Positions 4,881-20,217 of a stretch of DNA of 64,000 bases are shown piece by piece (position 1 is the stretch's first letter; each line of letters begins with the position of its first letter). The stretch is from the IMG/VR virus record IMGVR_UViG_3300032224_000723, positions 64,001-128,000 of that record; one strand, 5' to 3'. The translations under genes were made by a program, and so were the position numbers. Under the pieces are notes generated by a model. That model made no database searches. It saw nothing but the letters and a program-made list of their open reading frames with translations, and was not told the origin of the DNA. This DNA is from a virus.

Positions 4881-5572
4881 TGCCCAGGATACATGCTCCT
4901 CATTATGAGTATTGGATTCACAAAGGACATACATTTGGCCAATGTTTACATGGACCAGTTGGATCATCCGGATATTCTAATTACATACCAATACCTAAAT
5001 GTGGGAGCACCTGGGTTAATATCGTACTGTTTCATAGTTTAAATTGGCAAGTAGGTAACATCTATACAGATCCAGGTTTAGGTGAGCCTGGTGGGCTGGG
5101 GCTAAGCCACAATAGAAATTTAGTAGTATTGAGAGAACCTATTGAAAGATGGCTGTCAGGTATTGCTGAATACAGTTACAGATATCATGATCGAGATTTT
5201 ATAAACAATTTAAACAAACAAACATTAGATTTGATTTTTGATAGAGTAGCACTAGACGACCACACAGAAAAGCAAGTATACTACTGTCATGGATTACATC
5301 GATATCGGAGTTTATTTTTTCGTTGTGACTCGACATTAATTGAATTGTTTACGCAGTTCCTTACCAGTAACGGTGTAGACATAGATACCAGCAAAATACC
5401 GCCCGCTAATGTAACAGCAACAGATCAATATAAATTATCAATCAAAGAAACATTCCGTAATATCATAGAGAACGATATAAAATATAAAAACAAGTTAATA
5501 GATTATTTCAAAGCAGACTTTGATCTAATAGACAGCATAAATTTTTACCCACTAGACAATGAGAATAGATAA
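4880..5572 (+). CDS. Sulfotransferase family protein
   Basis: 5'-PSB-like IPIPKCGST; 3'-PB-like LREPIERWLSG; C-terminal YFKADFDL. Confidence 0.75.
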   Translation: MPRIHAPHYEYWIHKGHTFGQCLHGPVGSSGYSNYIPIPKCGSTWVNIVLFHSLNWQVGNIYTDPGLGEPGGLGLSHNRNLVVLREPIERWLSGIAEYSYRYHDRDFINNLNKQTLDLIFDRVALDDHTEKQVYYCHGLHRYRSLFFRCDSTLIELFTQFLTSNGVDIDTSKIPPANVTATDQYKLSIKETFRNIIENDIKYKNKLIDYFKADFDLIDSINFYPLDNENR

Positions 5573-7112
5573 CTTAACCAATAAACAAAGCGACTATGCA
5601 GTGTTCTTACCTGCACTAAGTAGCTTCTATGGCACTTACGTAGGCAAGCAACGACATGATCCTAATTTCATAGATAAAAACCGTATACCTGCAGACTTTG
5701 AAAACGGCATCGAAGGTATGAATTGGCTTAATGCAGATGCCGCATACTTTCCTTATAAGTGGACATTGTACAGTGCAGGGCATGCGAATCTAGATGTAAA
5801 CAAATTTGATGCCAAAGAAGATATGATTCGCAATCGCGACCCAAATACATTTATGTTGGGCGACAGCGGCGGATTTCAAATTGGTAAAGGTATATGGGAA
5901 GGCGATTGGAAGGATCCTAATTGTCCCAAGGCTGCTAAAAAACGAGCGCAAGTGCTGAGTTGGTTAGATGCATATTCAGATCGCGGAATGATCCTTGACA
6001 TTCCTGCGTGGGTCACACGCAGTCCTGCAGGCAGACGTGCTACTGGTATTACCACATATCAAGAAGCCGTAGATGCCACATACATCAACAATGAATACTT
6101 TATGAAGAATCGCACAGGTCGTTGCAAATTCTTAAATGTATTACAAGGCGACAATCATACTGATGCAGACGATTGGTATGACCGTATGAAGAAGTATTGT
6201 GATCCCAAACAGTATGCACAGCCTTTTGAAGGTTGGGCCATGGGAGGCCAAAATATGTGTGACATACATCTAGTGTTACGCAGACTAGTAGCACTACGTT
6301 TTGATGGATTGTTGGAATCTGGATTACATGATTGGATGCACTTTCTTGGTACAAGTAAATTAGAATGGGCTACATTGTTAACAGATATACAACGTGCAAT
6401 TCGCAAACATCACAATCCTACATTTACAATTAGCTTTGATTGTGCTAGCCCATTCCTTGCCACAGCCAATGGACAAATTTATTACGATGTGACCACTGAA
6501 GATAGAACTAAGTGGAGCTATCGTATGCAAGGTAGTGTAGATGATAAAAAATATGCCGCTGATACACGTAACTTTGGTGATGTATTGATGCAGGACAAAA
6601 TATTTGATTCGTTCTTACAAAGTCCTATTAGCGAGCGTATGCAAATCAAAGATGTTTGTGTGTACAAGCCTGGAGATCTAAATAAAATTGGTAAAGAAGG
6701 CAAAACATCATGGGATAGCTTTAGTTATGCATTGCAAATGGGCCATAATGTTTGGACACATATTCACGCAGTTCAGGAAGCAAATAGACAGTGTGATGCA
6801 GGTAAGTATCCAGAAATGTTAGTAGCAACAACTACAGACAAGAAAACATTCCGTCGTTACGATAGGAACTTTTTTAGAGATATTGTTGATGACATTTTTG
6901 CTACCAGTGACAGAGGCAAGGCTGAAGAACTAATTGAGCATTACAATAGATATTGGCTAAGTATTATTGGTACTCGAGGCGCAACAGGCAAAAAGACTTT
7001 TAACACCAGCACAGTGTTTAATGCATTGTTTGAACAAGATGCGCCCGAGGAACATCATATTGATGACAGCGGTTTAGATGAATCTAAATTAGACATTTTG
7101 GAGGCTGAATAA
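5559..7112 (+). CDS. dpdA: DpdA-like DNA 7-deazaguanine transglycosylase (TGT fold)
   Basis: TGT motifs DSGGFQ, MILDIP, NVLQG, WAMGG, HFLG, ISFDCAS; folE, queD and queE lie in the same region. Confidence 0.8.
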   Translation: MRIDNLTNKQSDYAVFLPALSSFYGTYVGKQRHDPNFIDKNRIPADFENGIEGMNWLNADAAYFPYKWTLYSAGHANLDVNKFDAKEDMIRNRDPNTFMLGDSGGFQIGKGIWEGDWKDPNCPKAAKKRAQVLSWLDAYSDRGMILDIPAWVTRSPAGRRATGITTYQEAVDATYINNEYFMKNRTGRCKFLNVLQGDNHTDADDWYDRMKKYCDPKQYAQPFEGWAMGGQNMCDIHLVLRRLVALRFDGLLESGLHDWMHFLGTSKLEWATLLTDIQRAIRKHHNPTFTISFDCASPFLATANGQIYYDVTTEDRTKWSYRMQGSVDDKKYAADTRNFGDVLMQDKIFDSFLQSPISERMQIKDVCVYKPGDLNKIGKEGKTSWDSFSYALQMGHNVWTHIHAVQEANRQCDAGKYPEMLVATTTDKKTFRRYDRNFFRDIVDDIFATSDRGKAEELIEHYNRYWLSIIGTRGATGKKTFNTSTVFNALFEQDAPEEHHIDDSGLDESKLDILEAE

Positions 7113-7113
7113 G

Positions 7114-7323
7114 ATGTATGAAAATAGAATTGCACATTTGAAAGAAAGTCATCGTGTATTGGATGAGAAAATTACTCTACACGAAAAGGAACACCCACAT
7201 TCTGAAAGCATGCTAGTGCAGGATTGGAAAAAGCAAAAGCTCATGCTCAAAGACGAAATACGAAAAATGGAACGTCTTCAATGGGAACATGATCACGAAA
7301 CTGTAGATCTTGACGATCATTGA
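7114..7323 (+). CDS. Small coiled-coil protein, YdcH/DUF465-like
   Basis: HRVLDEKI...KKQKLMLKDEI pattern. Confidence 0.65.
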   Translation: MYENRIAHLKESHRVLDEKITLHEKEHPHSESMLVQDWKKQKLMLKDEIRKMERLQWEHDHETVDLDDH

Positions 7324-7339
7324 CTGAATGTGCTATAAT
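7310..7339 (+). promoter_or_regulatory. Sigma70-type extended -10 promoter
   Basis: TTGACG-18 bp-TATAAT (TGcTATAAT); ATG 6 nt after the -10 box. Confidence 0.6.
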
Positions 7340-7345
7340 TAGCAC

Positions 7346-7462
7346 ATGACTTACATTGTAAATATAACAGGCGAGATTAGATTGCCTTACGAACCCGGCT
7401 TATTGGAATGGTTACAACAACGGTACCCATACAGTAAATATCATTTAGAAGAAAGCGAATAA
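7346..7462 (+). CDS. Small hypothetical protein (38 aa, not in ORF track)
   Basis: MTYIVNITGEIRLPYEPGLLEWLQQRYPYSKYHLEESE*; fills the gap and ends 1 nt before the next ATG. Confidence 0.6.
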   Translation: MTYIVNITGEIRLPYEPGLLEWLQQRYPYSKYHLEESE

Positions 7463-7463
7463 C

Positions 7464-7742
7464 ATGACTGTAGAACAAGCAGGAAATTTTTTAATTGGAT
7501 CTATACTTGCAGGTTTGGGATTTTGTATAATTACCATTGCTATACTGGTGATTAATAACTTATTTCACAAATATTGGAAACCTGTTACTTGGGGAATTCT
7601 CCCCGAGTCAATGAGGGGGAACTATCGATTCCAACAACCACATGAATACGTAGAACCGCATGAGCCTGCTATGGGGCCGGTGTTGGATCCAAAAACTGGC
7701 AAACCTGTGGAACATCTATCAGACGACAAAGCTAAAAAATGA
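7464..7742 (+). CDS. Hypothetical membrane protein
   Basis: N-terminal hydrophobic helix; ATGA-type coupling to the next gene. Confidence 0.7.
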   Translation: MTVEQAGNFLIGSILAGLGFCIITIAILVINNLFHKYWKPVTWGILPESMRGNYRFQQPHEYVEPHEPAMGPVLDPKTGKPVEHLSDDKAKK

Positions 7743-8620
7743 AAAGTCTTGTAATTGGTATGGGCATAGGACAGTTGTACAAAACTGTTCTATTAGAACT
7801 AGGACATACAGTGGTTACTGTAGATGCAGATCCTAAAAAAGGTGCAGACTTTTATGATTATGGGTTTGCGTTTGCCGCACACGGACACTTTGATACTGTA
7901 CACATTTGCACCCCAAATTACACACACATCAATCTAGCTAGACATGCTGCCATCCACGATGCTGGCATTGTATTTGTTGAAAAGCCTGGTGTAGAAAACA
8001 GTGGTATTTGGGCGCAACTTTGCGAGGACTTTCCCGGTACACGTTTTATGATGGTTAAAAACAATCAATGGCGTGACAACATAGCCGAATTAAAATCTTT
8101 AGCAGAATTGGCAAAGACAGTAAACTTAAACTGGATTAATAAAGATCGTGTGCCCAATCCAGGTACTTGGTTCACTACTAAACAATTAGCATTTGGTGGT
8201 GTTAGTAGAGACTTAATGCCACATTTGCTGAGTTTGTATATTGCATTGAACCCAATTTGGCGCACAGACAATGTTAATAAAATCGAAGCAGAAAGAAAAT
8301 GGCAACTCAATGAATTAACTACAACAGACTACGGACAAGTTAAAGCAGATGGTGTGTATGATGTTGATGATGTATGCTATATAACATTCACTGATAAATG
8401 GAACCTTACTGCTAATTGGCGTAGTATGGATCGGGATCAACGCAACATTGAATTTATTATGCCCGATGATACAGTTGAAACATTTGAGTTAGGACTATGC
8501 CCAGAGTATGCTTACAAAGAAATGATTCGCGATGCTGTGGCAAACCTAAATAATAATAAGTTCTGGAAAAATCAATACGACCAGGATATGTGGATTCATC
8601 AATTAATTGAAAACGTATGA
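7739..8620 (+). CDS. Gfo/Idh/MocA-family NAD(P)-dependent oxidoreductase
   Basis: VIGMGIG Rossmann start, ICTPNYTH, VFVEKP, GGVSRDLMPH. Confidence 0.85.
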   Translation: MKSLVIGMGIGQLYKTVLLELGHTVVTVDADPKKGADFYDYGFAFAAHGHFDTVHICTPNYTHINLARHAAIHDAGIVFVEKPGVENSGIWAQLCEDFPGTRFMMVKNNQWRDNIAELKSLAELAKTVNLNWINKDRVPNPGTWFTTKQLAFGGVSRDLMPHLLSLYIALNPIWRTDNVNKIEAERKWQLNELTTTDYGQVKADGVYDVDDVCYITFTDKWNLTANWRSMDRDQRNIEFIMPDDTVETFELGLCPEYAYKEMIRDAVANLNNNKFWKNQYDQDMWIHQLIENV

Positions 8621-9525
8621 ATAGAATATTGGCAACTAATGGCGATGGCGCCTTTTATGAAACTACCTATGAGCGTCCTGTTTGTAGCGACAATGAAATA
8701 GGTGTTGTATCTATTATGACTGGTGTATGTCGCAGTGACATAGACATGATGCAAGGAAACTTTGGTCCATTGCCCCCACACATGCAAGGACACGAAGGAC
8801 TGGGTCAAGTAGTAGAAATTGGCAACAAAATTAAAGATGTTGCAATCGGAGACTTTGTTGCTACACGTGGTGAACCTGCTTATGCTGATCAATACAATGT
8901 ACGTCGCGAAGAATATGTCCCTGTGCCAGAAGCGCACCCCCGCTACATATTGGAACCTGTAGCCTGCGGCATTAACATTGTTTATCAAGCAGTACGTGAA
9001 ATTGCAGAACGTGCAGGTCCTGGACGTAGGCTATTAATTATCGGCAGTGGCTTTCTTGCTTGGGTTGCATACAATACTTTATTACTCAATCACTTAGACG
9101 ACTTTGAAATAACTGTAGTGGGTACCAGCAATAGAGAACTATGGGGCGATATACTAAAACCTATTCATCATGGCACCTATGATGTTGTTATCGACTTAGG
9201 TAGTAGAGCCACTGTGTTTACTGAAAACATTTTAAACAATGAAGCATTAGTTGTGTTTGGTGCACAGAAAACAGTTACTACAGATTTCAGTAACTTACTT
9301 TGGAAAGCCTGCACAATGATCTTTCCCAGTCCCAGAACTGATCGTTTTTATAGTTGTATGCGTGATGCCGCGTATTGGATTGAAAATGGCGACATCAATG
9401 TCGACAGTTTCTGGACAAAAGGCTATAACAGAGACACTGAATGGCAACAGGCCTTCAGCGATGGAATTAACCGACCCCATGCTTACAGCAGAGGGTACAT
9501 TAAATGGACAGACAATGTCAATTGA
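8617..9525 (+). CDS. Zn-dependent medium-chain dehydrogenase/reductase
   Basis: GVCRSD, GHEGLG, EPVAC, IIGSGFL. Confidence 0.85.
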   Translation: MNRILATNGDGAFYETTYERPVCSDNEIGVVSIMTGVCRSDIDMMQGNFGPLPPHMQGHEGLGQVVEIGNKIKDVAIGDFVATRGEPAYADQYNVRREEYVPVPEAHPRYILEPVACGINIVYQAVREIAERAGPGRRLLIIGSGFLAWVAYNTLLLNHLDDFEITVVGTSNRELWGDILKPIHHGTYDVVIDLGSRATVFTENILNNEALVVFGAQKTVTTDFSNLLWKACTMIFPSPRTDRFYSCMRDAAYWIENGDINVDSFWTKGYNRDTEWQQAFSDGINRPHAYSRGYIKWTDNVN

Positions 9526-10288
9526 GCCTCGTAGTAGAAACAGCAAATTACCAACTTGGCATCAAGGACAAAAATTTGCCGACTCTACCCTTGAATGGTT
9601 GTATCCCGACACAGAAGAAGCGTTTAATAAACTCTGTCAGGATCCCAAACATCAAAAGTATTTTGCCGAAAAAGGTTGGAACCAACCCGGCGCAATAACT
9701 TATAAATTTAACAATCAAGGCTTTAGATGTGACGACTTTGATGATGCTCCTTGTTTGGTTACATTAGGCTGTAGCTATACTTTGGGACTAGGATTGCCAA
9801 TCGCTGACATATGGCCCACTTTGGTAGGATCAGAATTGGTTTTAAAAGTAGTTAACCTAGCATGGAATGGATATTCAGCCGACAGTTGTTTTAGACTAGC
9901 TGAATATTGGTTACCAAAACTAAATCCAGCATTGGTGGTTATGTTTACACCACCACAAGATAGAATTGAAATATTAAACGAGACCGATACAGTAATATAC
10001 ACTCCTGCAATTTTTTCAAATGTATCCGATGTAGTCAGCGATAGATTTCTTACTGATTGGATGTTGTTTAGTGAAAACGGCAGATTAAATTCCACCAAAA
10101 ATAAACTGGCTTTACAAAAATTGTGTTATAATTTAAATGTACGTTGTCAAATATATGATGTATTTGATTTCGTAGCAGAACCTAAGGAAGTGGTTGAATA
10201 TGCAAGAGACTACATGCATATGGGACCAAAGGGGCACAAAATTTTAGCAGAAACTATTATTAAGGATTGGAAAACCAATGGCAATTGA
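9515..10288 (+). CDS. SGNH/GDSL-like hydrolase or acyltransferase
   Basis: LGCSYTLG block I, NLAWNG, C-terminal DYMH (DxxH). Start refined to ATG 9515. Confidence 0.65.
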   Translation: MSIEPRSRNSKLPTWHQGQKFADSTLEWLYPDTEEAFNKLCQDPKHQKYFAEKGWNQPGAITYKFNNQGFRCDDFDDAPCLVTLGCSYTLGLGLPIADIWPTLVGSELVLKVVNLAWNGYSADSCFRLAEYWLPKLNPALVVMFTPPQDRIEILNETDTVIYTPAIFSNVSDVVSDRFLTDWMLFSENGRLNSTKNKLALQKLCYNLNVRCQIYDVFDFVAEPKEVVEYARDYMHMGPKGHKILAETIIKDWKTNGN

Positions 10289-10817
10289 TACAAGTGGACG
10301 TCAACAAGTAGATTATTTTGTTGGCATTGAAGTAGAAAACACTGCAATGAAAGGCGAAAAGACTTTGTTTGTAGTAGGAGTTAAACCTGTAGACGAAATC
10401 ATTGAACTTGCAGAAAAACACGGTGTAAAACATTTATACTTCGGTACAAGCCAAAGTTTTCATCCACATAGTCCTTATGACTGGGCCGCATGGGATGACA
10501 TGATCAAACCTTTGTTGGTCAAAGACTATTGGGTTACACTGGACTTTGGTGTTGAATACTGTAAAGAAATTCACGAACAAGCATGGTGCGAATACAATAC
10601 GTTTATCCCCATGATCAGTGTTAAGATTCCTTACATTAAACTCTACAACTATAACGCCACAGTTAAAATTGATGACAACACTTGGGGCGACACTAATCCT
10701 GGTGTATGGTGCCACCCACTAAATGAACTACTGACCAGGAATGTATACACAGACTGGAAAGATTACACAGGAGATTTTCCTGTAACGCCAACACATAATG
10801 GAAGTGAAGAAGAATGA
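10278..10817 (+). CDS. Hypothetical protein within the deazaguanine cluster
   Basis: 179 aa ORF overlapping both neighbours; no motif recognised. Confidence 0.75.
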   Translation: MAIDTSGRQQVDYFVGIEVENTAMKGEKTLFVVGVKPVDEIIELAEKHGVKHLYFGTSQSFHPHSPYDWAAWDDMIKPLLVKDYWVTLDFGVEYCKEIHEQAWCEYNTFIPMISVKIPYIKLYNYNATVKIDDNTWGDTNPGVWCHPLNELLTRNVYTDWKDYTGDFPVTPTHNGSEEE

Positions 10818-11248
10818 ATCAAGAACAAAGAGCAACTGTAGATAGAATTATGGAAGCAGCCGACCGTAAAATATGGGTACGTTTCCAAAAAGAAGGAATC
10901 CATAAATACCCAGCGGCACTAGAAGAAGCCCACTTAGCAGATGTTGCGTTCCTTGGTTATCCTCATCGTCATATTTTCCATTTCCGGGTGTGGATTGATG
11001 TGTTCCACAACGACCGGGACGTGGAGTTCATCCAATTCAAACGCTGGTGCGAATCGCTGTATAACGGTGACAATTCCGTTCTAGCATTGGACTACAAGTC
11101 TTGCGAAATGATTGCAGATGACTTGTATGTACAAATTGCTGCCAAATATCCAGAACGCACAGTATGGATCGAAGTCAGCGAAGACAGTGAAAATGGTGCG
11201 TTGATAAAATACGAATTAACAAAACCCTACAACTCAATCAAAATTTAA
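10814..11248 (+). CDS. QueD-like T-fold protein (DpdL-like candidate CDG decarboxylase)
   Basis: LGYPHRHIF (LxxxHRHxF), VEFIQFK, SCEMIA, VSED..NGA are T-fold features; a canonical QueD is encoded separately. Confidence 0.65.
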   Translation: MNQEQRATVDRIMEAADRKIWVRFQKEGIHKYPAALEEAHLADVAFLGYPHRHIFHFRVWIDVFHNDRDVEFIQFKRWCESLYNGDNSVLALDYKSCEMIADDLYVQIAAKYPERTVWIEVSEDSENGALIKYELTKPYNSIKI

Positions 11249-11262
11249 TCAGGAGAATAATA

Positions 11263-11466
11263 ATGGGACAACCTAAATGGGTAGAAAAATATCTGCGTAT
11301 GAAGCCCGAAGTCAATCAAATTTTTAACGACTTAGAAGGCTACAAAGATTACTGTAGACTTAACATGTTGAAGTTTGACGAAAAGGATTTGTATCGCAGT
11401 GAACAATACCGCAAGTACGAAAAATATCGTAACTGGTTAAACCGTCAAGCAGAAGCACACAGATAA
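11263..11466 (+). CDS. Hypothetical protein
   Basis: AGGAG SD; TAATG coupling to the next gene. Confidence 0.75.
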   Translation: MGQPKWVEKYLRMKPEVNQIFNDLEGYKDYCRLNMLKFDEKDLYRSEQYRKYEKYRNWLNRQAEAHR

Positions 11467-12560
11467 TGGCTAAGATTTGGTTAGTTGATTTAGAAGCAGT
11501 TGAAACTAGGTACACGGCTCAGTGGAAAAGCCATGTGCCTAAACTTTTACAAAAGGCAGGTCATGATGTTCAAATTATCTCTGGTCCTACGGACATTCCT
11601 AGCGCCACTACTCCTGGCGCCTTTCTTAATTTTGGCGGCACTAATATATACAAGTCTAGCCAAGTTGAGCAAATGGGGCGTCTATTTTGTAGCGGATCCG
11701 TTCATGCTGGCGACCATTTTGTTTTTACTGACGCTTGGCATCCAGGCATTATAAACTTAAAGTACATGAGTGAGTTGCTGGGTATTCCAGTAACTACACA
11801 TGGTTTTTGGCATGCTGGCAGCTATGACCCACAAGACTTCCTTGGACGCTTAGTTGGTGATAAACCTTGGGTCAGACATGCAGAGAAAAGTTACTTCTGG
11901 GCATTTGATCACAACTACTTTGCCACAGAGTTCCACGTTAAACTATTCATTGACGAATTGCTTATGGATGGTTACAAAGAAGAAAATCCTTGGTACGAGG
12001 AAGATTACGCTGACCGCTACAAAAGTGGCAAGATGGTAAAAACAGGTTGGCCCATGGAGTATATGGATGATGTACTAACTCCATATAAAGGCATGACTAA
12101 ACGTGACCTTATTGTATTCCCACATCGCATTGCTCCAGAAAAACAAGTAGAGATTTTTAGAGACTTAAAAGAACAACTACCACAATATGAGTTTGTTGTT
12201 TGTCAGGATCAAGAGCTTACTAAAAATGAATATCATAACTTGCTAGGCGAGGCCAAGATTGTGTTTAGTTGTAGTCTACAAGAAACTTTAGGCATTGGAT
12301 GTTATGAGGGTGCGCTAGTAGACGCTATTCCCATGGTGCCCAATAGACTAAGCTATGAAGAAATGTATGAGCCACAATTTAAATATCCCAGTATGTGGAC
12401 TATAGATTGGGATCACTACTTAGGTAATAGAACTGCGTTGCGTGATCATATTGTTAAAACTATGAGCAACTACAAATCGCAATTATCTAAATTAAAAACT
12501 CAAACACAAAATTTAACCAACAACTTCTTCAGCGCAAATGAGTTCCTCAAACGCCTTTGA
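11466..12560 (+). CDS. GT-B fold glycosyltransferase (GT4-like)
   Basis: FPHRIAPEKQ; E-x7-E signature QETLGIGCYE; HAGSYDP. Confidence 0.8.
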   Translation: MAKIWLVDLEAVETRYTAQWKSHVPKLLQKAGHDVQIISGPTDIPSATTPGAFLNFGGTNIYKSSQVEQMGRLFCSGSVHAGDHFVFTDAWHPGIINLKYMSELLGIPVTTHGFWHAGSYDPQDFLGRLVGDKPWVRHAEKSYFWAFDHNYFATEFHVKLFIDELLMDGYKEENPWYEEDYADRYKSGKMVKTGWPMEYMDDVLTPYKGMTKRDLIVFPHRIAPEKQVEIFRDLKEQLPQYEFVVCQDQELTKNEYHNLLGEAKIVFSCSLQETLGIGCYEGALVDAIPMVPNRLSYEEMYEPQFKYPSMWTIDWDHYLGNRTALRDHIVKTMSNYKSQLSKLKTQTQNLTNNFFSANEFLKRL

Positions 12561-13149
12561 TGTAATATTACAGTTTGAACAAGAACTAGCAGAGTTCACT
12601 GGAGCTCCGTATGCAATTATGACTGATTGTTGTACACACGCTATTGAACTGTGCATGAGACATGACCGTGTAGAGTTTTGTACATTCACTCCTTTTACAT
12701 ATCTAAGCATACCCATGCTCATGCACAAACTAGACATTGAGTATGCGTATGAAGAGGATGATCCTGCTCAATGGATCGGTGAGTATCGTTTTCTATCAAC
12801 TAGAATCTGGGATAGCGCACGTAGGCTAGAAAAGGATATGTATAAACAGGACCAGATACAATGTCTCAGCTTTGGACACGGCAAGCCTTTACAAATAGGT
12901 CGTGGTGGTGCTATACTATTAGATGACAAACAAGCGTATGAGGAAATAATTTTAATGCGTTATGATGGCCGCGACCTAAATAATATACCCTGGACAAAAC
13001 AACAAAAGTTTAAAGTTGGTTATCACTATAAACCCACTCCAGAGGAAGCGGAAGTCGGCATTAAACTATTGGAAGGTATTCGAGTTAATCAACCCAAACC
13101 CGAATATGTTGAATATGCAGACCTAAGACAAATTACTATTACGGATTAA
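12538..13149 (+). CDS. Short DegT/DnrJ/EryC1/StrS-like PLP aminotransferase
   Basis: FEQELAEF..YAIMTDCCTHAIEL, WDSA, SFGHGKPL..GRGGAIL. Confidence 0.75.
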   Translation: MSSSNAFDVILQFEQELAEFTGAPYAIMTDCCTHAIELCMRHDRVEFCTFTPFTYLSIPMLMHKLDIEYAYEEDDPAQWIGEYRFLSTRIWDSARRLEKDMYKQDQIQCLSFGHGKPLQIGRGGAILLDDKQAYEEIILMRYDGRDLNNIPWTKQQKFKVGYHYKPTPEEAEVGIKLLEGIRVNQPKPEYVEYADLRQITITD

Positions 13150-13150
13150 T

Positions 13151-13891
13151 ATGACAGAACCAGTATCAATAGATAACATAAACGACAAAGGTTATGAAAC
13201 AGGCTATTTAGGCGGCGCCATTCGTGCTAGAATGAAACGTGAAGGTAAACGTTTCTGGGCAGGCGACAACATTAGCGAATACGTCAAAGACGACTTTGAT
13301 AAAAACGAGCTTATTGAAGAAGCCACTCGAGCATTTGAAGGTGTGCTTGATGCATTACTTATTGATAGAGAAACAGATCCCAACAGCAAGGGCACAGCAC
13401 GCCGACTGGCCAAAATGTACTTTAACGAAATTATGGCAGGTAGATATGAACCAGCACCAGATGCAACAGCGTTTCCTAATGATAGTCAAGACCGTTATGA
13501 GGGTATGTTGGTGGTTAGGAGCGAGCTTCGCAGTATGTGTAGCCATCATCATCAGCCTGTGGCTGGTGTCGCTTATATTGGAATTATTGCCGCAAACAAG
13601 CTCATCGGATTGTCCAAGTACACACGTATTGCCCAATGGTGTGCTCGTAGAGGAACCCTACAGGAAGAACTGTGTAATGACATAGCCCGGGAAATTATGA
13701 AAGCCACAGACAGTGAAAGCGTTGGTGTTTATATTCAAGCAGTGCATGGTTGTTGCGAGAATCGAGGCATCATGGCACATAGTAGCTTAACACAAACTAC
13801 AGTACTAAAAGGTGCGTTTAACACTGACCCAGGTACGAAGAAGGAATTCTTCGACAACATCAAACTTCAACAAGATTTTGCACCACGTTAA
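13151..13891 (+). CDS. folE: GTP cyclohydrolase I
   Basis: SMCSHHHQP, IGLSKYTR, LQEEL, HGCCENRG. Confidence 0.95.
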   Translation: MTEPVSIDNINDKGYETGYLGGAIRARMKREGKRFWAGDNISEYVKDDFDKNELIEEATRAFEGVLDALLIDRETDPNSKGTARRLAKMYFNEIMAGRYEPAPDATAFPNDSQDRYEGMLVVRSELRSMCSHHHQPVAGVAYIGIIAANKLIGLSKYTRIAQWCARRGTLQEELCNDIAREIMKATDSESVGVYIQAVHGCCENRGIMAHSSLTQTTVLKGAFNTDPGTKKEFFDNIKLQQDFAPR

Positions 13892-13901
13892 GGAGAACAC
13901 T

Positions 13902-14114
13902 ATGGCAACAGCAAAAGCAGTAAAATCATTTGGCGACAAACTGATCAAGGTAAATGAGTCGTTTACAATCAACATGTACGACAACGGCTTCATGGTAGAA
14001 GCAGGTGGACGCAATAAGAAAGGCGATTATGTTAACGCTAAGATCTTGTGCAACACACTGGATGAAGTTGTTTCGCTTGTGCGTGAAGCATGCGAAATGG
14101 ATCGTGACGTTTAA
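13902..14114 (+). CDS. Hypothetical protein
   Basis: AAGGAG SD before ATG 13902. Confidence 0.7.
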   Translation: MATAKAVKSFGDKLIKVNESFTINMYDNGFMVEAGGRNKKGDYVNAKILCNTLDEVVSLVREACEMDRDV

Positions 14115-14123
14115 GGAACAATC

Positions 14124-14627
14124 ATGGCTATCTGGACTGTAAAAACACATTACAAAAAGAATGTTCAAGAAGTTGAGACTTATGTACAACGAGATGGCAA
14201 AGGTCGAGTAACTGTTACTAATGGTTTCCGTTGGGGGTCTTGGGAAGTCACTACCACAGATGACAATCCTCCCGAGTTTGAATTTGACTTTGTGCCAGGT
14301 GGTGATGGTGCCAAAGACAGCATCAACATGTTAGAGTGCGAGTACAACAATATTGAAAGCGTTGAACTACTCAGCATGGATGACGGTGGTTGCTGGTATG
14401 ACATTGAGATCGAAGGACTAGACGAAGAAGCTGAAGAAGAGATTCGTGAGTTCCTTGATGAAAACAGTCCTTATGAACTAGAAGACCGAGACGACGGTTG
14501 GCAGCAGGATGACAGTGCTTGGTGGATCTGGGGTCCGATTGAAATTCAAAACGAAGCAGGTGAAACTGTACGCATCATCTGTGCAGATGCAGACGGTAAT
14601 GTTGTAGACTTTAAGGACGAAGAATGA
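14124..14627 (+). CDS. Acidic hypothetical protein
   Basis: AAGGA SD; very D/E-rich 167 aa. Confidence 0.75.
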   Translation: MAIWTVKTHYKKNVQEVETYVQRDGKGRVTVTNGFRWGSWEVTTTDDNPPEFEFDFVPGGDGAKDSINMLECEYNNIESVELLSMDDGGCWYDIEIEGLDEEAEEEIREFLDENSPYELEDRDDGWQQDDSAWWIWGPIEIQNEAGETVRIICADADGNVVDFKDEE

Positions 14628-14911
14628 GACTTTTAAAGAGAATACAGTTTAGAATACGGTATTGGTTGTATGTCAAGTCGGGTTTGAAGAAGCGAGATGA
14701 AGACAATTGGTGGAGAGGTGCTTGTTATGCCAACACTCGCGCAGATGTTCGTGCGGGCATGATAGAAATGAAAGACTGGTATCCTTGGAAAGAAGAGTCT
14801 CAGTTCATACATCTTTATGCTTTACATGCGAAAGTTGAGTGGACTCGACACCTGCGACCTGAATGGACTTGGAAGCAAGCAAGTAAACGTGTAACAAACC
14901 CAAAATGGTAA
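14624..14911 (+). CDS. Hypothetical protein flanked by a duplicated gene end
   Basis: ATGA overlap; see finding on the duplicated junction. Confidence 0.65.
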   Translation: MRLLKRIQFRIRYWLYVKSGLKKRDEDNWWRGACYANTRADVRAGMIEMKDWYPWKEESQFIHLYALHAKVEWTRHLRPEWTWKQASKRVTNPKW

Positions 14912-14935
14912 AGTAATCGATTTAAAGGACGAAGA

Positions 14936-15151
14936 ATGAAACCCGCAGACGCCGCTGGCAAAATACTGGACCGTGTAATGAACTTAAAAACTTATGTTGT
15001 TGAAGTTCAATTACCTGAAGAATTTGAATTCAATGGCAAAGTGCCATATGATTTGACAATTAAGGATGGAATTGTTAAAATAGAAATTCCTGCACTTAAT
15101 GAAAAAGAAGCCGCAGTCAAAGCTCGGCAGTTTTTAAATTCAAATTGGTAA
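14936..15151 (+). CDS. Hypothetical protein
   Basis: AAGGA SD; 71 aa. Confidence 0.65.
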   Translation: MKPADAAGKILDRVMNLKTYVVEVQLPEEFEFNGKVPYDLTIKDGIVKIEIPALNEKEAAVKARQFLNSNW

Positions 15152-15159
15152 AACGGAAC

Positions 15160-15215
15160 TTGACAAGTAAATAATTTTCAGTTATACTTGACTCATACTT
15201 TGAAATTCAAAGTAT
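15160..15215 (+). promoter_or_regulatory. Sigma70 promoter followed by a perfect 10-1-10 palindrome (operator-like)
   Basis: TTGACA(15160)-17 bp-TATACT(15183); ATACTTTGAA-A-TTCAAAGTAT at 15195-15215. Confidence 0.75.
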
Positions 15216-15273
15216 AAATCAAACTAGCCAATGCGAGATCAAGCAAAGGCTTTGACATTAACAAGGAGAAATT

Positions 15274-16296
15274 ATGTCACAAAAGCAAGACGCCTCAATG
15301 GCACCATTTGACCCCAGTGCAGGCAAAAAGACTCGAAAAGTTCCTTTGGTAGAAGTAGCCAAAGCAGTTAGTAAACGTATTGGTACTAAGATTGCTACCA
15401 AGACCAATGTTAATCCCCAGGACATTTTAAAATTTACTTGGGCACCATTAGAAAAAGTTTTTGTTAACTATGGGCGCCAACGTTATCCAGAACCAAAACA
15501 CCAACTAAAAGTTTTTAACAAGTGGAACATCCACTGTGTAACACCTTTACAGTGCCGTTATGATCCTGTAGAAGATCATTATTATGTTTCAGATGGTCAG
15601 CAACATGGCAGTGTTTGGGTCATGCAATATGGCCTACAAACAATGGTACCTGTGTTTTATGTAGAAAGCACAGATGAGAACATTGAAAGTGTACAACTGT
15701 TGGCGTTGAACACAGACAGTGAGCCAATGGCAAAATACTTTATTCATCAAACTGCTATTCAAACTGGCGATGTTGATGCCATTGCATTGGAGAAAAAGTT
15801 GACTGATGTAGACTGCTTCACTGCATATAAGAAAAAGACTCCAGGTGCTGTTACGCACATTAGTCACTTGTGGCAAGCACGTGATAGTTATGGTTTAGAT
15901 GATTTGGGCGAAGTAGCTGGTGCAATGCGTCGATTCTGGCCTTTGGAAAAGATTGCTGAACCGACTATGTTGGGCTTCCTTAAATTAAAGGAAATCCTTG
16001 TGTTTGAAAAGCAGTATACCGAAGACTTGCTGACTGACATCATCAGTGAATGTAGCAATTACTTTAGCAGTGCCAAAGACATGCACTTGCATATCAATCA
16101 TGCTTTTGAAAAGACATATCCTACAAACTATAAAGGTATGGGCGTTAGAGAAAAGATTGCTTCAGGTATTATCAGCATTTATGAACAAGCCAAACCAGAC
16201 TTTGTGTCTGCTAAACCATTTGCAATTGATGTAAGCATCATGGCAGATGAAATTATTACAGACTTAGACGAAGTATTTGAAGATGAACTCGCATAA
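15274..16296 (+). CDS. ParB/Srx-like N-terminal domain protein (DGQH-type)
   Basis: YGRQR, YYVSDGQQHG, VPVFYV; AAGGAG SD. Confidence 0.6.
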   Translation: MSQKQDASMAPFDPSAGKKTRKVPLVEVAKAVSKRIGTKIATKTNVNPQDILKFTWAPLEKVFVNYGRQRYPEPKHQLKVFNKWNIHCVTPLQCRYDPVEDHYYVSDGQQHGSVWVMQYGLQTMVPVFYVESTDENIESVQLLALNTDSEPMAKYFIHQTAIQTGDVDAIALEKKLTDVDCFTAYKKKTPGAVTHISHLWQARDSYGLDDLGEVAGAMRRFWPLEKIAEPTMLGFLKLKEILVFEKQYTEDLLTDIISECSNYFSSAKDMHLHINHAFEKTYPTNYKGMGVREKIASGIISIYEQAKPDFVSAKPFAIDVSIMADEIITDLDEVFEDELA

Positions 16297-16729
16297 GCTA
16301 TATCCAAAATATCTTCCTGGAACATATCACAGCCGTGATGTGTTCCAGCGTGTTGTGGAAACAAGGGATCTACGTATCCCTTGGGCTTACAAAAGTGCAG
16401 TCAAGTGGGGAGTAGATGCCGAAGAATTTTTAAAACTCTGTGGCCCTACTTGTAAATGTTGTGATAGCCCTTTGGATTATGGTGTTGGTAAAAACAATCA
16501 TGGCAAAAAGGACATAAACACACCCAGCACTGATCATATTGTTAGCCAACATGAAGGTAAACTTTTAGAGTGGACCAACGAACAAATCAATGACATTTCT
16601 AATTTTTGGATCATTTGTATGCGTTGCAATTTGCTTAAAAATAACAGCACTGCCGTAGATGCATTTCGATATCGAAGGATTGCAGATGTATTAGAAGCCA
16701 GATTAAATTTAATGGAGAAAAATAGTTGA
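16283..16729 (+). CDS. HNH endonuclease
   Basis: CKCC...STDHIV...NFWIICMRCNLLK. Confidence 0.8.
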   Translation: MNSHKLYPKYLPGTYHSRDVFQRVVETRDLRIPWAYKSAVKWGVDAEEFLKLCGPTCKCCDSPLDYGVGKNNHGKKDINTPSTDHIVSQHEGKLLEWTNEQINDISNFWIICMRCNLLKNNSTAVDAFRYRRIADVLEARLNLMEKNS

Positions 16730-17073
16730 TTGGCACAATAAAAACAACTAGTAAGTATGTTGCAGTTACTGGTGGCCCAGCTGGCAACTATGTCAACAAC
16801 TCTAATTATATGGCTGTTGGACAGTTACAATATAACACTAACAATCAGCAATTAGAACTATACAATGGCAAAGACTGGCAACCCCTTAATCTAGGAACTT
16901 ACCATGTTGATTTAAATCCACATGCTGAAAAGATACTTGATTGGGCCGCTAAAAAAATGTCTGAAGAACAAGAGCTTAAAGCTCGAATGGAAAAATATTC
17001 AGGTCTCAAAGATGCTTACGAGCAATTTCAGATCATGGACGCACTAACAATAGAGGAAGAAAAAAATGTTTAA
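16726..17073 (+). CDS. Hypothetical protein
   Basis: ORF overlapping both neighbours; GGAG SD. Confidence 0.7.
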   Translation: MIGTIKTTSKYVAVTGGPAGNYVNNSNYMAVGQLQYNTNNQQLELYNGKDWQPLNLGTYHVDLNPHAEKILDWAAKKMSEEQELKARMEKYSGLKDAYEQFQIMDALTIEEEKNV

Positions 17074-17362
17074 AAGATGGTTACGAAATTGGTTACTAAG
17101 TGACGAGACCGAAAAATCCCGTCGAGCGGAGAAATATTCTAACTCTGTCATCACCAGCGGCTCAACGTTCGACGCCGACGACCATCGTGTTAACACTTTA
17201 AGATTTAACGTCACTCCTGCAAGGGGAGGTATTGTACTTACAGTTAAACACTACGATCGCAAACGTGACGAAGATCATTGCACTGTCCATGTTCTACACG
17301 ATGGACAAGATCTAGCCAAGGATATTGGCGAAATTGTTAGTATGGAATTGTTGCGCTCATAA
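17066..17362 (+). CDS. Hypothetical protein
   Basis: Coupled ORF with GAGG SD. Confidence 0.7.
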   Translation: MFKRWLRNWLLSDETEKSRRAEKYSNSVITSGSTFDADDHRVNTLRFNVTPARGGIVLTVKHYDRKRDEDHCTVHVLHDGQDLAKDIGEIVSMELLRS

Positions 17363-17371
17363 GGAGTTGGC

Positions 17372-17821
17372 ATGTTACTTAACCTTTTAGATAAACTGGG
17401 CCGTCGACGTATTGTCATGGACCGAGTCAACAATGAACCGTATTTGGAACGTTACTACGTGTTCTTGAAAGATCGTACTTGGTTTCCATTTAATGTATTC
17501 ATACACAAGTTTCTTAAAAGTGATCCCGACGATGTACACGATCATCCTTGGCCCTACGCTACACTTATCTTAAAAGGCGGATATTGGGAATGGATTCCAC
17601 AGTTTAACAGTCTTGGACAGAAGGTCGGTGAAATAGCAACATGGCGTGGCGCTGGTCACTTTCGTATTTGTAAAGCCAATAGTTTTCATCGTATCGAACT
17701 TGATCCCAATGTAACTGCATGGACATTGTTTATGCCAGGTATTAAACAACGTGAATGGGGCTTTTTAAGTAAAGGCCGTTGGATACAGTGGCAAAAATAT
17801 TTGGAGCTTAGAACAAAATGA
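17372..17821 (+). CDS. Cupin-fold protein
   Basis: HDHPW...GGYWE...FHRIEL..WTLF; AAGGAG SD. Confidence 0.7.
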   Translation: MLLNLLDKLGRRRIVMDRVNNEPYLERYYVFLKDRTWFPFNVFIHKFLKSDPDDVHDHPWPYATLILKGGYWEWIPQFNSLGQKVGEIATWRGAGHFRICKANSFHRIELDPNVTAWTLFMPGIKQREWGFLSKGRWIQWQKYLELRTK

Positions 17822-18159
17822 TTCAATTACCTCTAGGATGTACTGTTGTCTACGGCATTCGCATAGACATCGACAATTTATCAGCTGACATCATTGACTG
17901 GTATAAAACTGTTGGTGGTGTTATAACTGAAAGCAAACACTACAACCGTAGAGGTAACGAACACGTAACGACTTATGTACAATATGGTAAGTCAAAGAAA
18001 TGCCATTATCATCACAATGGTGGATCCAACGCTGTCAGACTTCATTTCCTCGGCGAGGATGCCAGTGTTGCTAGTATGTTCTTATTAAAGTTTATGGAAC
18101 ATGTAACTGATCACAATCTTAAGGAAGTAATGCACAGGATTGAGTACGATAAATACTAG
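17818..18159 (+). CDS. Hypothetical protein (possible F-x-L-K-W/F family member)
   Basis: Coupled ORF; DASVASMFLLKF. Confidence 0.65.
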   Translation: MIQLPLGCTVVYGIRIDIDNLSADIIDWYKTVGGVITESKHYNRRGNEHVTTYVQYGKSKKCHYHHNGGSNAVRLHFLGEDASVASMFLLKFMEHVTDHNLKEVMHRIEYDKY

Positions 18160-18167
18160 TTCAATCC

Positions 18168-18232
18168 AGCGGCCTCTGAGCATCATCCCGCTATACAAAT
18201 TCTGCTGCCTATGCTATAATTAACATAGGAGA
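18168..18232 (+). ncRNA. Candidate cis-regulatory RNA (pseudoknot plus SD-sequestering hairpin) upstream of queD
   Basis: AGCGG(18168)/CCGCT(18188) stem; loop AGCA can pair with TGCT(18203); CCTATG(18208)/CATAGG(18224) hairpin overlaps the AGGAG SD. Confidence 0.4.
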
Positions 18233-18237
18233 AAAGC

Positions 18238-18741
18238 ATGTCACTACAACCCGTATTATACAAATACACCAGCACTAAAGAATACCACGACGCATTTCCT
18301 TGCGCTTATCGTCAATGGCGAGCAGACAGTCATTGTAATTTGATACATGGCTATTCGTTTAGTATGAAATTTTACTTTGGTACAAATGATTTAGATGTTC
18401 GTAACTGGGCCGGCGACTATGGTGGACTTAAAGAACTTAAGAAGATACTGGAAGATCAATTTGACCATACATTGATTGTTGCACAAGATGATCCAGAGCT
18501 GGAGACATTTAAGTTGTTGCAAGAAAAGAACATGGCCAAGATTGTGGTACTGCCCAAACTAGGTTGCGAAGGACTTGCGGATCAACTCTACAAGTTTGTA
18601 AACGGTGTTTACATTCCTGACAACTGGGGTCCGGGCGAAGCAGAACGCTTATGGTGCTATCGTGTTGAGGTACGTGAGACACAGGCTAATATGGCATTCC
18701 GTGAAGGCCATCGTGAATGGAATGAGGACTTGTTTGCATGA
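18238..18741 (+). CDS. queD: 6-carboxy-5,6,7,8-tetrahydropterin synthase
   Basis: HCNLIHGY, DYGGLK, FDHT, GCEGLA, VRET. Confidence 0.9.
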   Translation: MSLQPVLYKYTSTKEYHDAFPCAYRQWRADSHCNLIHGYSFSMKFYFGTNDLDVRNWAGDYGGLKELKKILEDQFDHTLIVAQDDPELETFKLLQEKNMAKIVVLPKLGCEGLADQLYKFVNGVYIPDNWGPGEAERLWCYRVEVRETQANMAFREGHREWNEDLFA

Positions 18742-18862
18742 AACTATACAAACACAGCAACGGTAAACAAGTCTTTTCCCCGAGCATATCCCTAAAGGAT
18801 GGGAAGTTATGTTGAAGCCAACGACCTTTGAAATTGTATGGCGTAAGATTCGGAATAGATAA
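18738..18862 (+). pseudogene. Small frameshifted ORF (1 nt short of a 41-aa gene)
   Basis: ATGA-coupled start and TAATG-coupled stop are in different frames; shift near GGTAAACA. Confidence 0.5.
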
Positions 18863-19098
18863 TGACGCCAGAGCAACAGATCAAACTCGTTGAAGAACGG
18901 GCACGATTGCAAATAGAAGCCGCCGAAGCTGATCGAGATTATGCACTAGGTTTAGCAGCCGCGGCTCACTTGGAATTGATACAGGCCATAAAGTATGGAT
19001 TCAATCCCAAGTCCGCACACAGTACATTAATTAGTATTGGTAAGTTGAGCCCAAGACTAAATGCAATACGAGAAAAGATGTTGAGAGACAAAGAATGA
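18862..19098 (+). CDS. Hypothetical protein
   Basis: Coupled ORF. Confidence 0.65.
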   Translation: MTPEQQIKLVEERARLQIEAAEADRDYALGLAAAAHLELIQAIKYGFNPKSAHSTLISIGKLSPRLNAIREKMLRDKE

Positions 19099-19367
19099 AT
19101 TCAAAAATAGAAGAAGCATTAGGTATACTGCAAGAAGAATGTGCAGAAGTTATTGTAGAAGTCAGCAAGTGCCGTAGGTTTGGTATTGACAGCGTACACT
19201 ACAAAACTGGCATCGAACACTCCAAAATGCTTGAGTTGGAAGTAGGAGATGTGTTAGCATTAATAGATATTCTTGTTGAGCAAGGCGTTTTAAATACAGC
19301 AGTATTAGACATTGCCAAAGCAAACAAAAAAGAAAAACTTAAACAGTGGTCAAAAATTTATGAGTAA
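19095..19367 (+). CDS. MazG-like nucleotide pyrophosphohydrolase
   Basis: LQEECAEV...LELEVGDVL (EExxE...ExxD). Confidence 0.75.
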   Translation: MNSKIEEALGILQEECAEVIVEVSKCRRFGIDSVHYKTGIEHSKMLELEVGDVLALIDILVEQGVLNTAVLDIAKANKKEKLKQWSKIYE

Positions 19368-20217
19368 ACTTAAAATATCAGAATTGTTTTACAGCGCACA
19401 AGGCGAAGGTCGCTTTGTTGGTGTTCCCAGTGTGTTTCTACGCACGTACGGATGTAACTTTAAATGTGCAGGCTTTGGCTGCAAGCCCGGCGAACTCAGC
19501 ACAGAAGCAGATGAAGTAGCAAAGAACATTCATTTGTATAAAACATTTGAAGAACTACCTTTGGTCAATACCGGCTGTGACAGCTATGCTAGTTGGCATC
19601 CTGCATTTAAAGATCTAAGTCACACATATGACATTGATGAGATTGTTGTAAAAATGTTGGCCTTAACTCCCAATGGACGTTGGGTACAAAACAACGGCAA
19701 CGATGTACACTTAGTTATCACAGGTGGCGAACCTTTGCTAGGTTGGCAACGCAGTTATGAAGAACTACTAAGTCATCCCGGACTTGAAGATATTCGTAAC
19801 ATTACATTTGAAACTAATGGTACACAACCACTCAGTGACAAATTCAAAGCATTCTTAGATGAATGGTATACTCCTGATAAAGAAATCACATTCAGTGTGA
19901 GTCCCAAGTTAATTGCCAGCGGTGAGATGTGGAATGATGCTATCAAGCCAGAAGTTGTAATTGACTATCAAAGATATGGTCATACTTACTTGAAGTTTGT
20001 AGTAGAACATGCGGCACATTTTGATGAGGTAGACAATGCTGTGCGTGAATATAGACGTGCAGGATTTGAAATGACTGTGTTTGTTATGCCGCAAGGTGGT
20101 GTTGTAACTCCTTATGAAAAAAATCGTGTTAATGTTGCTAACTGGGCATTGGCCAGAGGTTATAACTATAGTCCACGGCTACACGTCGACTTGTGGGGCA
20201 ATGGCTGGGGTAAGTAA
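19360..20217 (+). CDS. queE: 7-carboxy-7-deazaguanine synthase (radical SAM)
   Basis: ELFYSAQGEG, VFLRTYGCNFKC...CDS, VITGGEP, FETNGT, SVSPK, PRLH; start ATG 19360. Confidence 0.93.
   Translation: MSKLKISELFYSAQGEGRFVGVPSVFLRTYGCNFKCAGFGCKPGELSTEADEVAKNIHLYKTFEELPLVNTGCDSYASWHPAFKDLSHTYDIDEIVVKMLALTPNGRWVQNNGNDVHLVITGGEPLLGWQRSYEELLSHPGLEDIRNITFETNGTQPLSDKFKAFLDEWYTPDKEITFSVSPKLIASGEMWNDAIKPEVVIDYQRYGHTYLKFVVEHAAHFDEVDNAVREYRRAGFEMTVFVMPQGGVVTPYEKNRVNVANWALARGYNYSPRLHVDLWGNGWGK

Follow-up and report, generated by a model that had tools for sequence, protein, structure and literature searches.

We analysed a 64,000-nucleotide window of viral DNA, bases 64001-128000 of a 156,993-bp linear IMG/VR virus record, in which positions 5559-20217, with every gene on the + strand, carry a set of 7-deazaguanine DNA modification genes. 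The source of the record is an uncultured T4-like jumbo phage, a giant lake phage with a genome of roughly 350 kb, and CheckV estimates the 157-kb record to be about 45% complete. Judging from homology and motifs, the region very probably encodes a DpdL-type, QueC-independent 7-deazaguanine DNA modification system, and a gene for a predicted glycosyltransferase (GT; 11466-12560) lies among its members. The QueC-less DpdL route is already known, while we found no earlier description of the GT gene within deazaguanine genes in the literature searched. Our best explanation overall, which we favor tentatively and with somewhat less than even confidence, is that a DpdL-type system has been extended by a sugar-transfer step.

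The gene at 10814-11248 encodes DpdL, a QueD-like T-fold protein (phrog_17812, 3.3e-36) that reads FLGYPHRHIFHF, in which L-GYP-HRH-I-F fits the LxxxHRHxF signature, and this motif is conserved in relatives. The protein is 56% identical to the named DpdL of Acidovorax phage ACP17 and 34% identical to that of Cellulophaga phage phiST. DpdL is defined by LxxxHRHxF, as opposed to CxxxHGH in QueD, and is a proposed decarboxylase of 7-carboxy-7-deazaguanine (CDG) that gives 7-deazaguanine (PMC10516641). Phages with DpdL contain DpdA, FolE, QueD, and QueE and lack QueC (Cui, Hutinet et al., Nucleic Acids Research 2023, PMC10516641). An earlier examination of this DNA from its letters only, referred to here as the sequence-only reading, had recognized a second T-fold protein at this position; the gene is real, and the motif and homology sharpen its identity to DpdL. 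The same reading had proposed a base derived from CDG without QueC as a possibly new pathway. DpdL supports that derivation but removes the novelty of the pathway, since a second T-fold protein that is DpdL makes the QueC-less route one of the published DpdL type.

From its predicted fold, motifs, and conservation, we are confident in predicting the 364-residue product of 11466-12560 to be a GT-B-fold, GT4-like retaining glycosyltransferase. Its AlphaFold2 model had a predicted local distance difference test (pLDDT) score of 90.5, and a Foldseek search with this model gave an E value of 2.5e-11. Alignment with VIA-align placed BshA (3mbo) at the top, with a Z score of 24.6 and a root mean square deviation of 2.8 over 300 residues, followed by sucrose-phosphate synthase, MshA, GlgM, and LmbT (Z 23-24.6), so that the GT-B assignment made beforehand is borne out by the predicted fold. 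Residues R221 and K226 (R-x4-K) and E273 and E281 (E-x7-E) were invariant in 30 sequences; by motif position, we take the former to be the GT4 diphosphate-binding pair and the latter the GT4 E-x7-E motif. On these sequence features, the enzyme looks active. The Pfam model Glycos_transf_1 (PF00534) did not match the GT above the cut-off, with 13 of the 30 members matching below threshold (best E 0.0025), and gave no match in the whole record, leaving the GT without any family match above threshold. The 50 best matches listed for the GT in PDB or BFVD did not include the alpha- and beta-glucosyltransferases of T4, a result compatible with kinship.

The window genes were mapped onto 80 loci around DpdA homologues, and counts out of 47 refer to those relatives whose locus extends 4 kb or more past DpdA on the downstream side. 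DpdL and the GT were present in 47/47 relatives, and two conserved proteins, u179 (10278-10817) and u67 (11263-11466), were present in 45/47, giving a core synteny of DpdA-u179-DpdL-u67-GT-FolE. FolE was found in 26/26 relatives whose flank reaches 8 kb or more. Among cultured phages, the GT lies no more than 3 kb from DpdL in seven lineages: it abuts DpdL in Sinorhizobium phage Phosso, the PA5oct group, ACP17, and Synechococcus phage BUCT-ZZ01 and is within 3 kb without abutting in Xanthomonas phages X1 and BUDD and Burkholderia phage BCSR5. Gene orders vary among these phages (DpdA-GT-DpdL, GT-DpdA-DpdL, or DpdL-GT), as do the DpdA subfamilies, and in Phosso the DpdL-GT pair (64% and 48% identity) is 172 kb from the DpdA-like gene (PV764938.1 150437-151881, 323240-324595). 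Because the pair persists across gene orders and DpdA subfamilies and in Phosso, the GT follows DpdL and not any one DpdA subfamily. Co-occurrence with dpdA had been set beforehand by the sequence-only reading as a check on both the GT-B gene and the oxidoreductase genes of the cluster. The refuting outcome, a lack of such co-occurrence, was not observed: the GT was found with dpdA and dpdL in 47/47 relatives and in the seven cultured lineages, and the two oxidoreductases, present in 12/47 relatives, recur together with u179 in the Pseudomonas jumbo phage PA5oct. One related locus (L021:1648-6914) has the DpdA-like gene followed by u220 and FEN, with the u179-DpdL-GT-FolE-QueE block missing there.

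The two conserved partners matched no family in the searches made. For u179, a core partner of DpdL, there was no match by Pfam (26 members), PDB profile search, Atlas, or PADLOC, and u67, a small basic protein (pI 9.3) encoded between DpdL and the GT, likewise had no family match. Homologues of u179 among phage records were limited to the PA5oct group (47% identity) and ACP17 (33%, encoded directly upstream of its DpdA), and an exhaustive profile search recovered 793 clusters in the representative library. Some longer forms of u179 contain extra parts with neither an informative Pfam domain nor similarity to cassette genes. An apparent u179-DpdL fusion in locus L078 was rejected due to a stop codon between the two genes. 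Since the GT and u179 are fixed partners of DpdL by conserved linkage, both probably act in the deazaguanine pathway.

The 517-residue product of 5559-7112 is predicted to be a divergent, DpdA-like DNA transglycosylase of the PA5oct type with a tRNA-guanine transglycosylase (TGT) fold. It had no match in Pfam, PHROG, NCBIfam, or PADLOC and none among PDB sequences by phmmer or profile search, and the Pfam TGT model PF01702 matched neither this protein nor anything else in the 157-kb record. Its AlphaFold2 model had a pLDDT of 66 with a poorly modelled C-terminal region. The best 50 listed PDB matches of this model in Foldseek were all bacterial or archaeal TGTs (probability 1.00, E about 1e-6), with template modeling (TM) scores up to 0.54 on the target. 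The motifs DSGGFQ (LGDSGGFQ), GWAMGG, and FDCASP were invariant, with D102, D147, and D294, in 22 homologues, the catalytic Asp being assigned by motif rather than by residue-level structural alignment. No CxCxxC zinc motif was visible in the sequence, including the poorly modelled C-terminal region. The TGT fold and the invariant catalytic Asp motifs bear out the initial dpdA-like call. BLASTP revealed no similarity to the DpdA proteins of ACP17, X1, and phiST, and hhalign against ACP17 DpdA gave a probability of <1%, though the motifs line up. As its cultured-phage relatives are limited to the PA5oct group (37% identity, with EST35_0316 of PA5oct), Phosso, and Vibrio phage 2.275.O, this predicted transglycosylase is a distinct DpdA subfamily that falls, by sequence, outside the named subfamilies. 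More than 8000 close metagenome homologues were found in freshwater and marine samples.

The genes for CDG synthesis were assigned as FolE, GTP cyclohydrolase I (13151-13891; PF01227 9.8e-39, phrog_2197 3.7e-44), a QueD-like 6-carboxytetrahydropterin (CPH4) synthase (18238-18741; PF01242 2.2e-13, phrog_2389 4e-35), and QueE, the radical S-adenosylmethionine (SAM) CDG synthase (19312-20217; phrog_2076 3.3e-51, with five NCBIfam QueE models matching the N-terminal motif). These matches uphold the folE, queD, and queE calls made from the sequence. Bacterial QueD contains a zinc-binding CxxxHGH motif. In the window protein, aligned to the motif of Pseudomonas aeruginosa QueD, this motif is replaced by CxxxHGY, and the upstream His is likewise Tyr (CAYRQW). 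The CxxxHGY form occurred in all DpdL-type phages examined, namely, this phage, ACP17, BUCT-ZZ01, RHph_I1_18, and phiST (window 18238-18741; L083:5795-6271; L087:2884-3351; L086:3931-4509; L084:3343-3972), and this QueD variant may go with DpdL systems.

The observation that queC and queF are absent from the window stood, and the search was extended to the whole record. QueC (PF06508) had no match anywhere in the 157-kb record, itself about 45% complete, and tblastn with the QueC, QueF, and Gat proteins of Vibrio phage 2.275.O found no relative in this incomplete record. In the 80 related loci, the same queries returned nothing but one weak QueF-like match (L038). The complete genomes of PA5oct, ACP17, and BUCT-ZZ01, which contain the same DpdL-GT module, gave no QueC match, and Xanthomonas phage X1 gave only a sub-threshold match of 16 bits. 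Because of the incompleteness of the record, the absence of QueC is not proven from this record alone.

Comparison with ACP17 shows all core parts adjacent in another phage. Its cluster, QueD-FolE-u179-DpdA-GT-DpdL-QueE, places the GT between dpdA and dpdL and u179 just upstream of DpdA, with identities to this phage of 33% for u179, 35% for the GT (TM 0.85-0.90 to its BFVD model), and 56% for DpdL. In contrast, the DpdA of ACP17 belongs to another, 424-residue subfamily, and Gfo, Zn dehydrogenase, and short DegT genes are lacking. PA5oct (Wroclawvirus) contains a block in which a DpdA of the same subfamily as in this phage (37%) has a GT (41%) and DpdL (53%) immediately after it, with QueE and a FEN/RNaseH gene next in order. 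It also has in common with this phage a trio of Gfo (32%), Zn dehydrogenase (41%), and u179 (47%) in the same order. PA5oct differs in that the trio is 27 kb from the block, short DegT and SGNH-like genes are absent, and no FolE occurs within 12 kb of the block. A modified G in PA5oct DNA is indicated by its resistance, at sites that contain G, to five restriction enzymes, although the study did not determine the base; END nucleases, whose action is confined to hypermodified phages, also attack PA5oct (PMC12191111).

In phiST, 2'-deoxy-7-deazaguanosine (dDG) replaces all G in a phage with DpdL (PMC10516641). Similarly to this phage, phiST has FolE, QueD, and QueE without QueC, the DpdL motif, a TGT-fold transglycosylase, and QueD with CxxxHGY. 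Unlike this phage, it has no GT4 enzyme and no u179 homologue, its measured base is plain dDG, and its DpdA3 is about 260 residues with no sequence similarity to the 517-residue protein. Expression of dpdA and dpdL of ACP17 or phiST in Escherichia coli yielded no dDG, and the authors suspected that further enzymes were needed (PMC10516641). That paper makes no mention of a glycosyltransferase (0 occurrences of "glycosyl"). Our literature search, which did not extend to a 2024 review in Microbiology and Molecular Biology Reviews or the supplements of PMC10516641, found no description of a glycosylated deazaguanine in DNA. An enzymatic likeness is HuiG, a GT4-type, PF13439 (Glyco_transf_4) glycosyltransferase that transfers N-acetylglucosamine onto a free 7-deazapurine in the formation of huimycin (bioRxiv 10.64898/2026.04.15.718813). 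HuiG is likened here by domain and by role alongside a deazapurine pathway, and not by comparison of sequences; it differs in belonging to a preQ0-dependent actinomycete secondary metabolite pathway with no DpdA and a product that is not in DNA. The alpha- and beta-glucosyltransferases of T4 act on 5-hydroxymethylcytosine DNA. They are alike in their GT-B fold, in belonging to a phage replication or modification module, and in adding a sugar to a modified base, the role proposed here, but their acceptor is a pyrimidine with a hydroxymethyl handle, and the GT of this phage has GT4 motifs.

In the pathway that we propose, FolE, QueD, and QueE would form CDG, DpdL would decarboxylate CDG to 7-deazaguanine, and the 517-residue TGT-fold enzyme would exchange DNA guanine for 7-deazaguanine. 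The GT4 enzyme would move a sugar from a nucleoside diphosphate (NDP)-sugar to the deazaguanine, either on the free base or after insertion, and the final DNA base would be a glycosylated 7-deazaguanine that may function in shielding phage DNA from restriction. In this phage, a Gfo-like oxidase, a Zn dehydrogenase, and a short DegT protein would edit the sugar, likely to a keto-sugar that is then aminated. A keto-sugar-forming enzyme combined with an aminotransferase is standard amino-sugar logic, and by this logic the keto sugar would come from the Gfo-like oxidase. Relatives instead have a 4,6-dehydratase/epimerase, radical SAM enzymes, 2-oxoglutarate (2OG) oxygenases, or methyltransferases in the corresponding slot. 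A sugar on the base in virion DNA is possible, although we consider it somewhat doubtful. A broader version, in which glycosylated 7-deazaguanine occurs in the clade and in PA5oct, ACP17, Phosso, X1, and BUCT-ZZ01, lineage-swapped tailoring enzymes diversify the sugar, and u179 creates or presents the acceptor, is one that we put forward with still greater reserve.

The sugar and redox genes proposed to tailor the base occupy a variable slot between DpdA and FolE. The oxidoreductase at 7739-8620 is an accessory protein and probable sugar oxidase resembling the Gfo/Idh/MocA family. The gene and its order agreed with the sequence-only reading, and the family match was sub-threshold only (PF01408, 20 bits against a cut-off of 24). 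Its best PDB match was DgpA (E 6.5e-4, residues 45-168), and PA5oct EST35_0362 is 32% identical over the full length; no phage record besides PA5oct has a full-length homologue, one further record giving a weak partial match. The accessory gene paired with it (8617-9525) encodes a Zn-type medium-chain dehydrogenase, as had been called, with PF08240 above the cut-off (2.8e-10) and 41% identity to PA5oct EST35_0363 (E 8e-74). These two genes were always together, in 12/47 relatives and always between DpdA and u179, and PA5oct keeps Gfo, Zn dehydrogenase, and u179 as consecutive genes (EST35_0362-0364) in the same order, apart from its DpdA-GT-DpdL block. The SGNH/GDSL-like open reading frame (ORF), with true bounds of 9515-10288, is unproven, as motifs and a faint PF13472 match (E 0.063) do not secure the SGNH identity given to it previously. 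The 80 related loci yielded nothing clearer than one weak match to it (L016, 27% over 77 residues), and neither PA5oct nor Vibrio phage 2.275.O yielded a homologue.

The gene at 12538-13149 encodes a DegT/DnrJ/EryC1-type pyridoxal phosphate (PLP) protein of only 203 residues (PF01041 4.7e-14, 52.8 bits against a cut-off of 19.8). It keeps the Schiff-base lysine (SFxxxK), with SFGHGK aligning with SFHPRK of 9bgp, but relative to full-length enzymes it is short of about 110 residues internally and about 120 at the C terminus. Its residues from about 40 to 106 align with positions 62-175 in full-length enzymes, which have two domains and about 360-390 residues, and the C-terminal domain is gone. 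The call of a short PLP aminotransferase is thus retained in its family and its lysine but not in a full two-domain architecture. The short form is kept at 169-207 residues in relatives and occurs in 28/47 of them. The part that the sequence-only reading gave to these genes was not supported as stated; the oxidoreductases (12/47), the SGNH-like ORF (this phage only), and the aminotransferase (28/47) are optional rather than core.

Six relatives have a gene for an NDP-sugar epimerase/4,6-dehydratase between those for the GT and the short DegT protein. Other relatives contain in the slot a B12-binding radical SAM enzyme, a SPASM radical SAM enzyme, two kinds of 2OG-Fe(II) oxygenase, a methyltransferase, or a phosphoribosyltransferase, and the slot is hypervariable in L007, L011, L013, L018, L034, L042, L053, and L054. 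We interpret the slot as a site where tailoring functions for the sugar or the base are exchanged while the core stays fixed. Phosphoribosyltransferase genes (PF00156, 6.7e-12) were observed in the slot of 15 relatives, such as L065:15448-16032, and BUCT-ZZ01 has an annotated xanthine-guanine phosphoribosyltransferase beside QueE (L087:2093-2554); none was found in the window. These phosphoribosyltransferases hint at a nucleotide-level route for the base.

Several observations weigh against a sugar on the base. 7-Deazaguanine has no hydroxyl for sugar attachment, and the decarboxylase activity of DpdL is itself a literature proposal. The 47 relatives belong to a single clade whose synteny is inherited; they are not independent and therefore count as roughly one observation. 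Some phages, among them phiST and RHph_I1_18, have DpdL but no GT. The Gfo-Zn dehydrogenase pair is missing in 35/47 relatives, and the SGNH-like ORF is confined to this phage. Flavobacterium phage immuto_2-6A, with sugar-free fdPreQ1 in its DNA, encodes a homologue of the short DegT protein within an ordinary glycan cluster. In the genome of the phage studied here, a large separate sugar-tailoring island (37-59 kb) could use the sugar enzymes. The immuto_2-6A homologue and the sugar island, which spans 22 kb and holds a paralogue of a radical SAM gene at 1948-3105, would fit a plain phiST-type dDG system in which the GT, redox, and aminotransferase genes serve a purpose unrelated to DNA, for example glycans of virion proteins or the host envelope, and are cargo in a tolerant T4-like replication module. 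The variability of the DpdA-FolE region, with its many unrelated inserts, and the attainment of 100% dDG by phiST with DpdL and no GT (PMC10516641) favor the same explanation. We consider it unlikely, as adjacency of the GT and DpdL recurs in seven cultured lineages with differing gene orders and DpdA subfamilies, the pair persists in Phosso with DpdA far away, and the GT was never lost in the clade (47/47), unlike true cargo genes.

Alternatively, the GT may act on free CDG, 7-deazaguanine, or a pterin intermediate, generating a glycosylated intermediate or carrier that DpdL or DpdA requires but that is not retained in DNA, or a soluble glycosylated deazapurine or pterin metabolite. The closest structural neighbours of the GT (BshA, MshA, sucrose-phosphate synthase, and LmbT) are GT4 enzymes that use small-molecule acceptors and not DNA, a pterin glucosyltransferase (9v0l) was among the Foldseek matches, and HuiG glycosylates a free deazapurine. 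The tracking of DpdL by the GT rather than of one DpdA subfamily and the slot phosphoribosyltransferases, which suggest free-base chemistry, point in the same direction. However, fold alone does not reveal the acceptor, no known deazaguanine route requires a glycosylated intermediate, dDG is formed in phiST in the absence of a GT, and a soluble metabolite would leave the fixation of the GT in a DNA modification and replication module unexplained. On balance, we regard a small-molecule acceptor as improbable, too. Modification of tRNA with a queuosine-like wobble base rather than of DNA is far less credible still. FolE, QueD, QueE, and a TGT-fold enzyme are also parts of queuosine and archaeosine pathways, and phage que genes were for long annotated as such (PMC9025141), but no QueC, QueF, QueA, or QueG was found in the record, the DpdL-type phages tested so far have the base in their DNA, where it accounts for as much as 100% of G (PMC10516641), and PA5oct DNA is restriction resistant at G sites (PMC12191111).

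The prediction of a glycosylated 7-deazaguanine is open to test in cultured phages (PA5oct and ACP17). To our knowledge, the sugar-bearing DNA bases are all pyrimidines with a hydroxymethyl handle (T-even phages and base J), and the deazaguanines so far reported in DNA all carry small groups. The proposed base would thus be a new chemical class of DNA base and the first sugar-bearing purine in DNA, and the GT would provide a new enzyme and acceptor pair for DNA labelling. A sugar-transfer step would also bear on why dpdA and dpdL alone yielded no dDG in E. coli and on the modified G of PA5oct, a therapeutic candidate phage. Diversification of the sugar by swaps of tailoring sets would resemble O-antigen variation. 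Given the more than 8000 homologues of the DpdA-like protein, the modification could be common in nature, in which case it could affect the sequencing and restriction of such DNA.

The gene order and coordinates claimed from the dpdA-like gene to queE were confirmed, with only the bounds of the SGNH-like ORF revised. Positions 7464-13891 contain ten + strand genes that abut or overlap, with a largest gap of no more than 15 bp, in the order u92-Gfo-ZnADH-SGNH-u179-DpdL-u67-GT-DegT-FolE. Directly before this run, at 7310-7339, is a sigma-70-like site (11-of-12, with an extended -10 TG), and in the promoter scan such sites overall were not above the shuffled background. Searches of window 1500-23500 with Rfam under permissive filters detected no preQ1 riboswitch or other RNA family (E up to 1), and megablast of the region against the phage collection gave no match. 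Downstream of FolE, a cupin-like protein (17372-17821; phrog_4786, 6.3e-36, with the PHROG name "cysteine dioxygenase") is a possible tailoring enzyme, and in a marine subgroup of relatives the cupin-like gene is directly after the GT.

Upstream of the DpdA-like gene, three further + strand genes were considered. A radical SAM/SPASM enzyme (1948-3105; PF04055 1.9e-11, PF13186 1.3e-5) is a possible tailoring enzyme of uncertain membership that was present in 7/80 related loci; its paralogue (31% identity; window 48224-49156, - strand) lies in the sugar-tailoring island, near tail-fibre genes. A SAM-dependent methyltransferase (3105-4091; Methyltransf_23/25/12/11 matches), also an uncertain member, stands upstream of a clamp-like gene in 52/80 related loci. 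This gene (4137-4880) encodes u247, a 247-residue sliding-clamp-like protein (phrog_12062) that is a neighbour from replication rather than part of the modification chemistry. Atlas feature matches to PCNA/gp45-clamp clusters at 0.95-0.98 provide a lead only. We rejected u247 as a Dpd partner due to its resemblance to a sliding clamp, yet hhalign to one annotated clamp was negative. A u247 homologue precedes the DpdA-like gene also in PA5oct (L081:10918-11664) and Vibrio phage 2.275.O (L082:10430-11149), with one to two short hypothetical genes between the two, and the PA5oct clamp-like protein was detected in virions by mass spectrometry according to the record annotation. Farther downstream in the window, a thymidylate synthase family gene (36245-37099; PF00303, 358 bits) is the sole such gene in the record.

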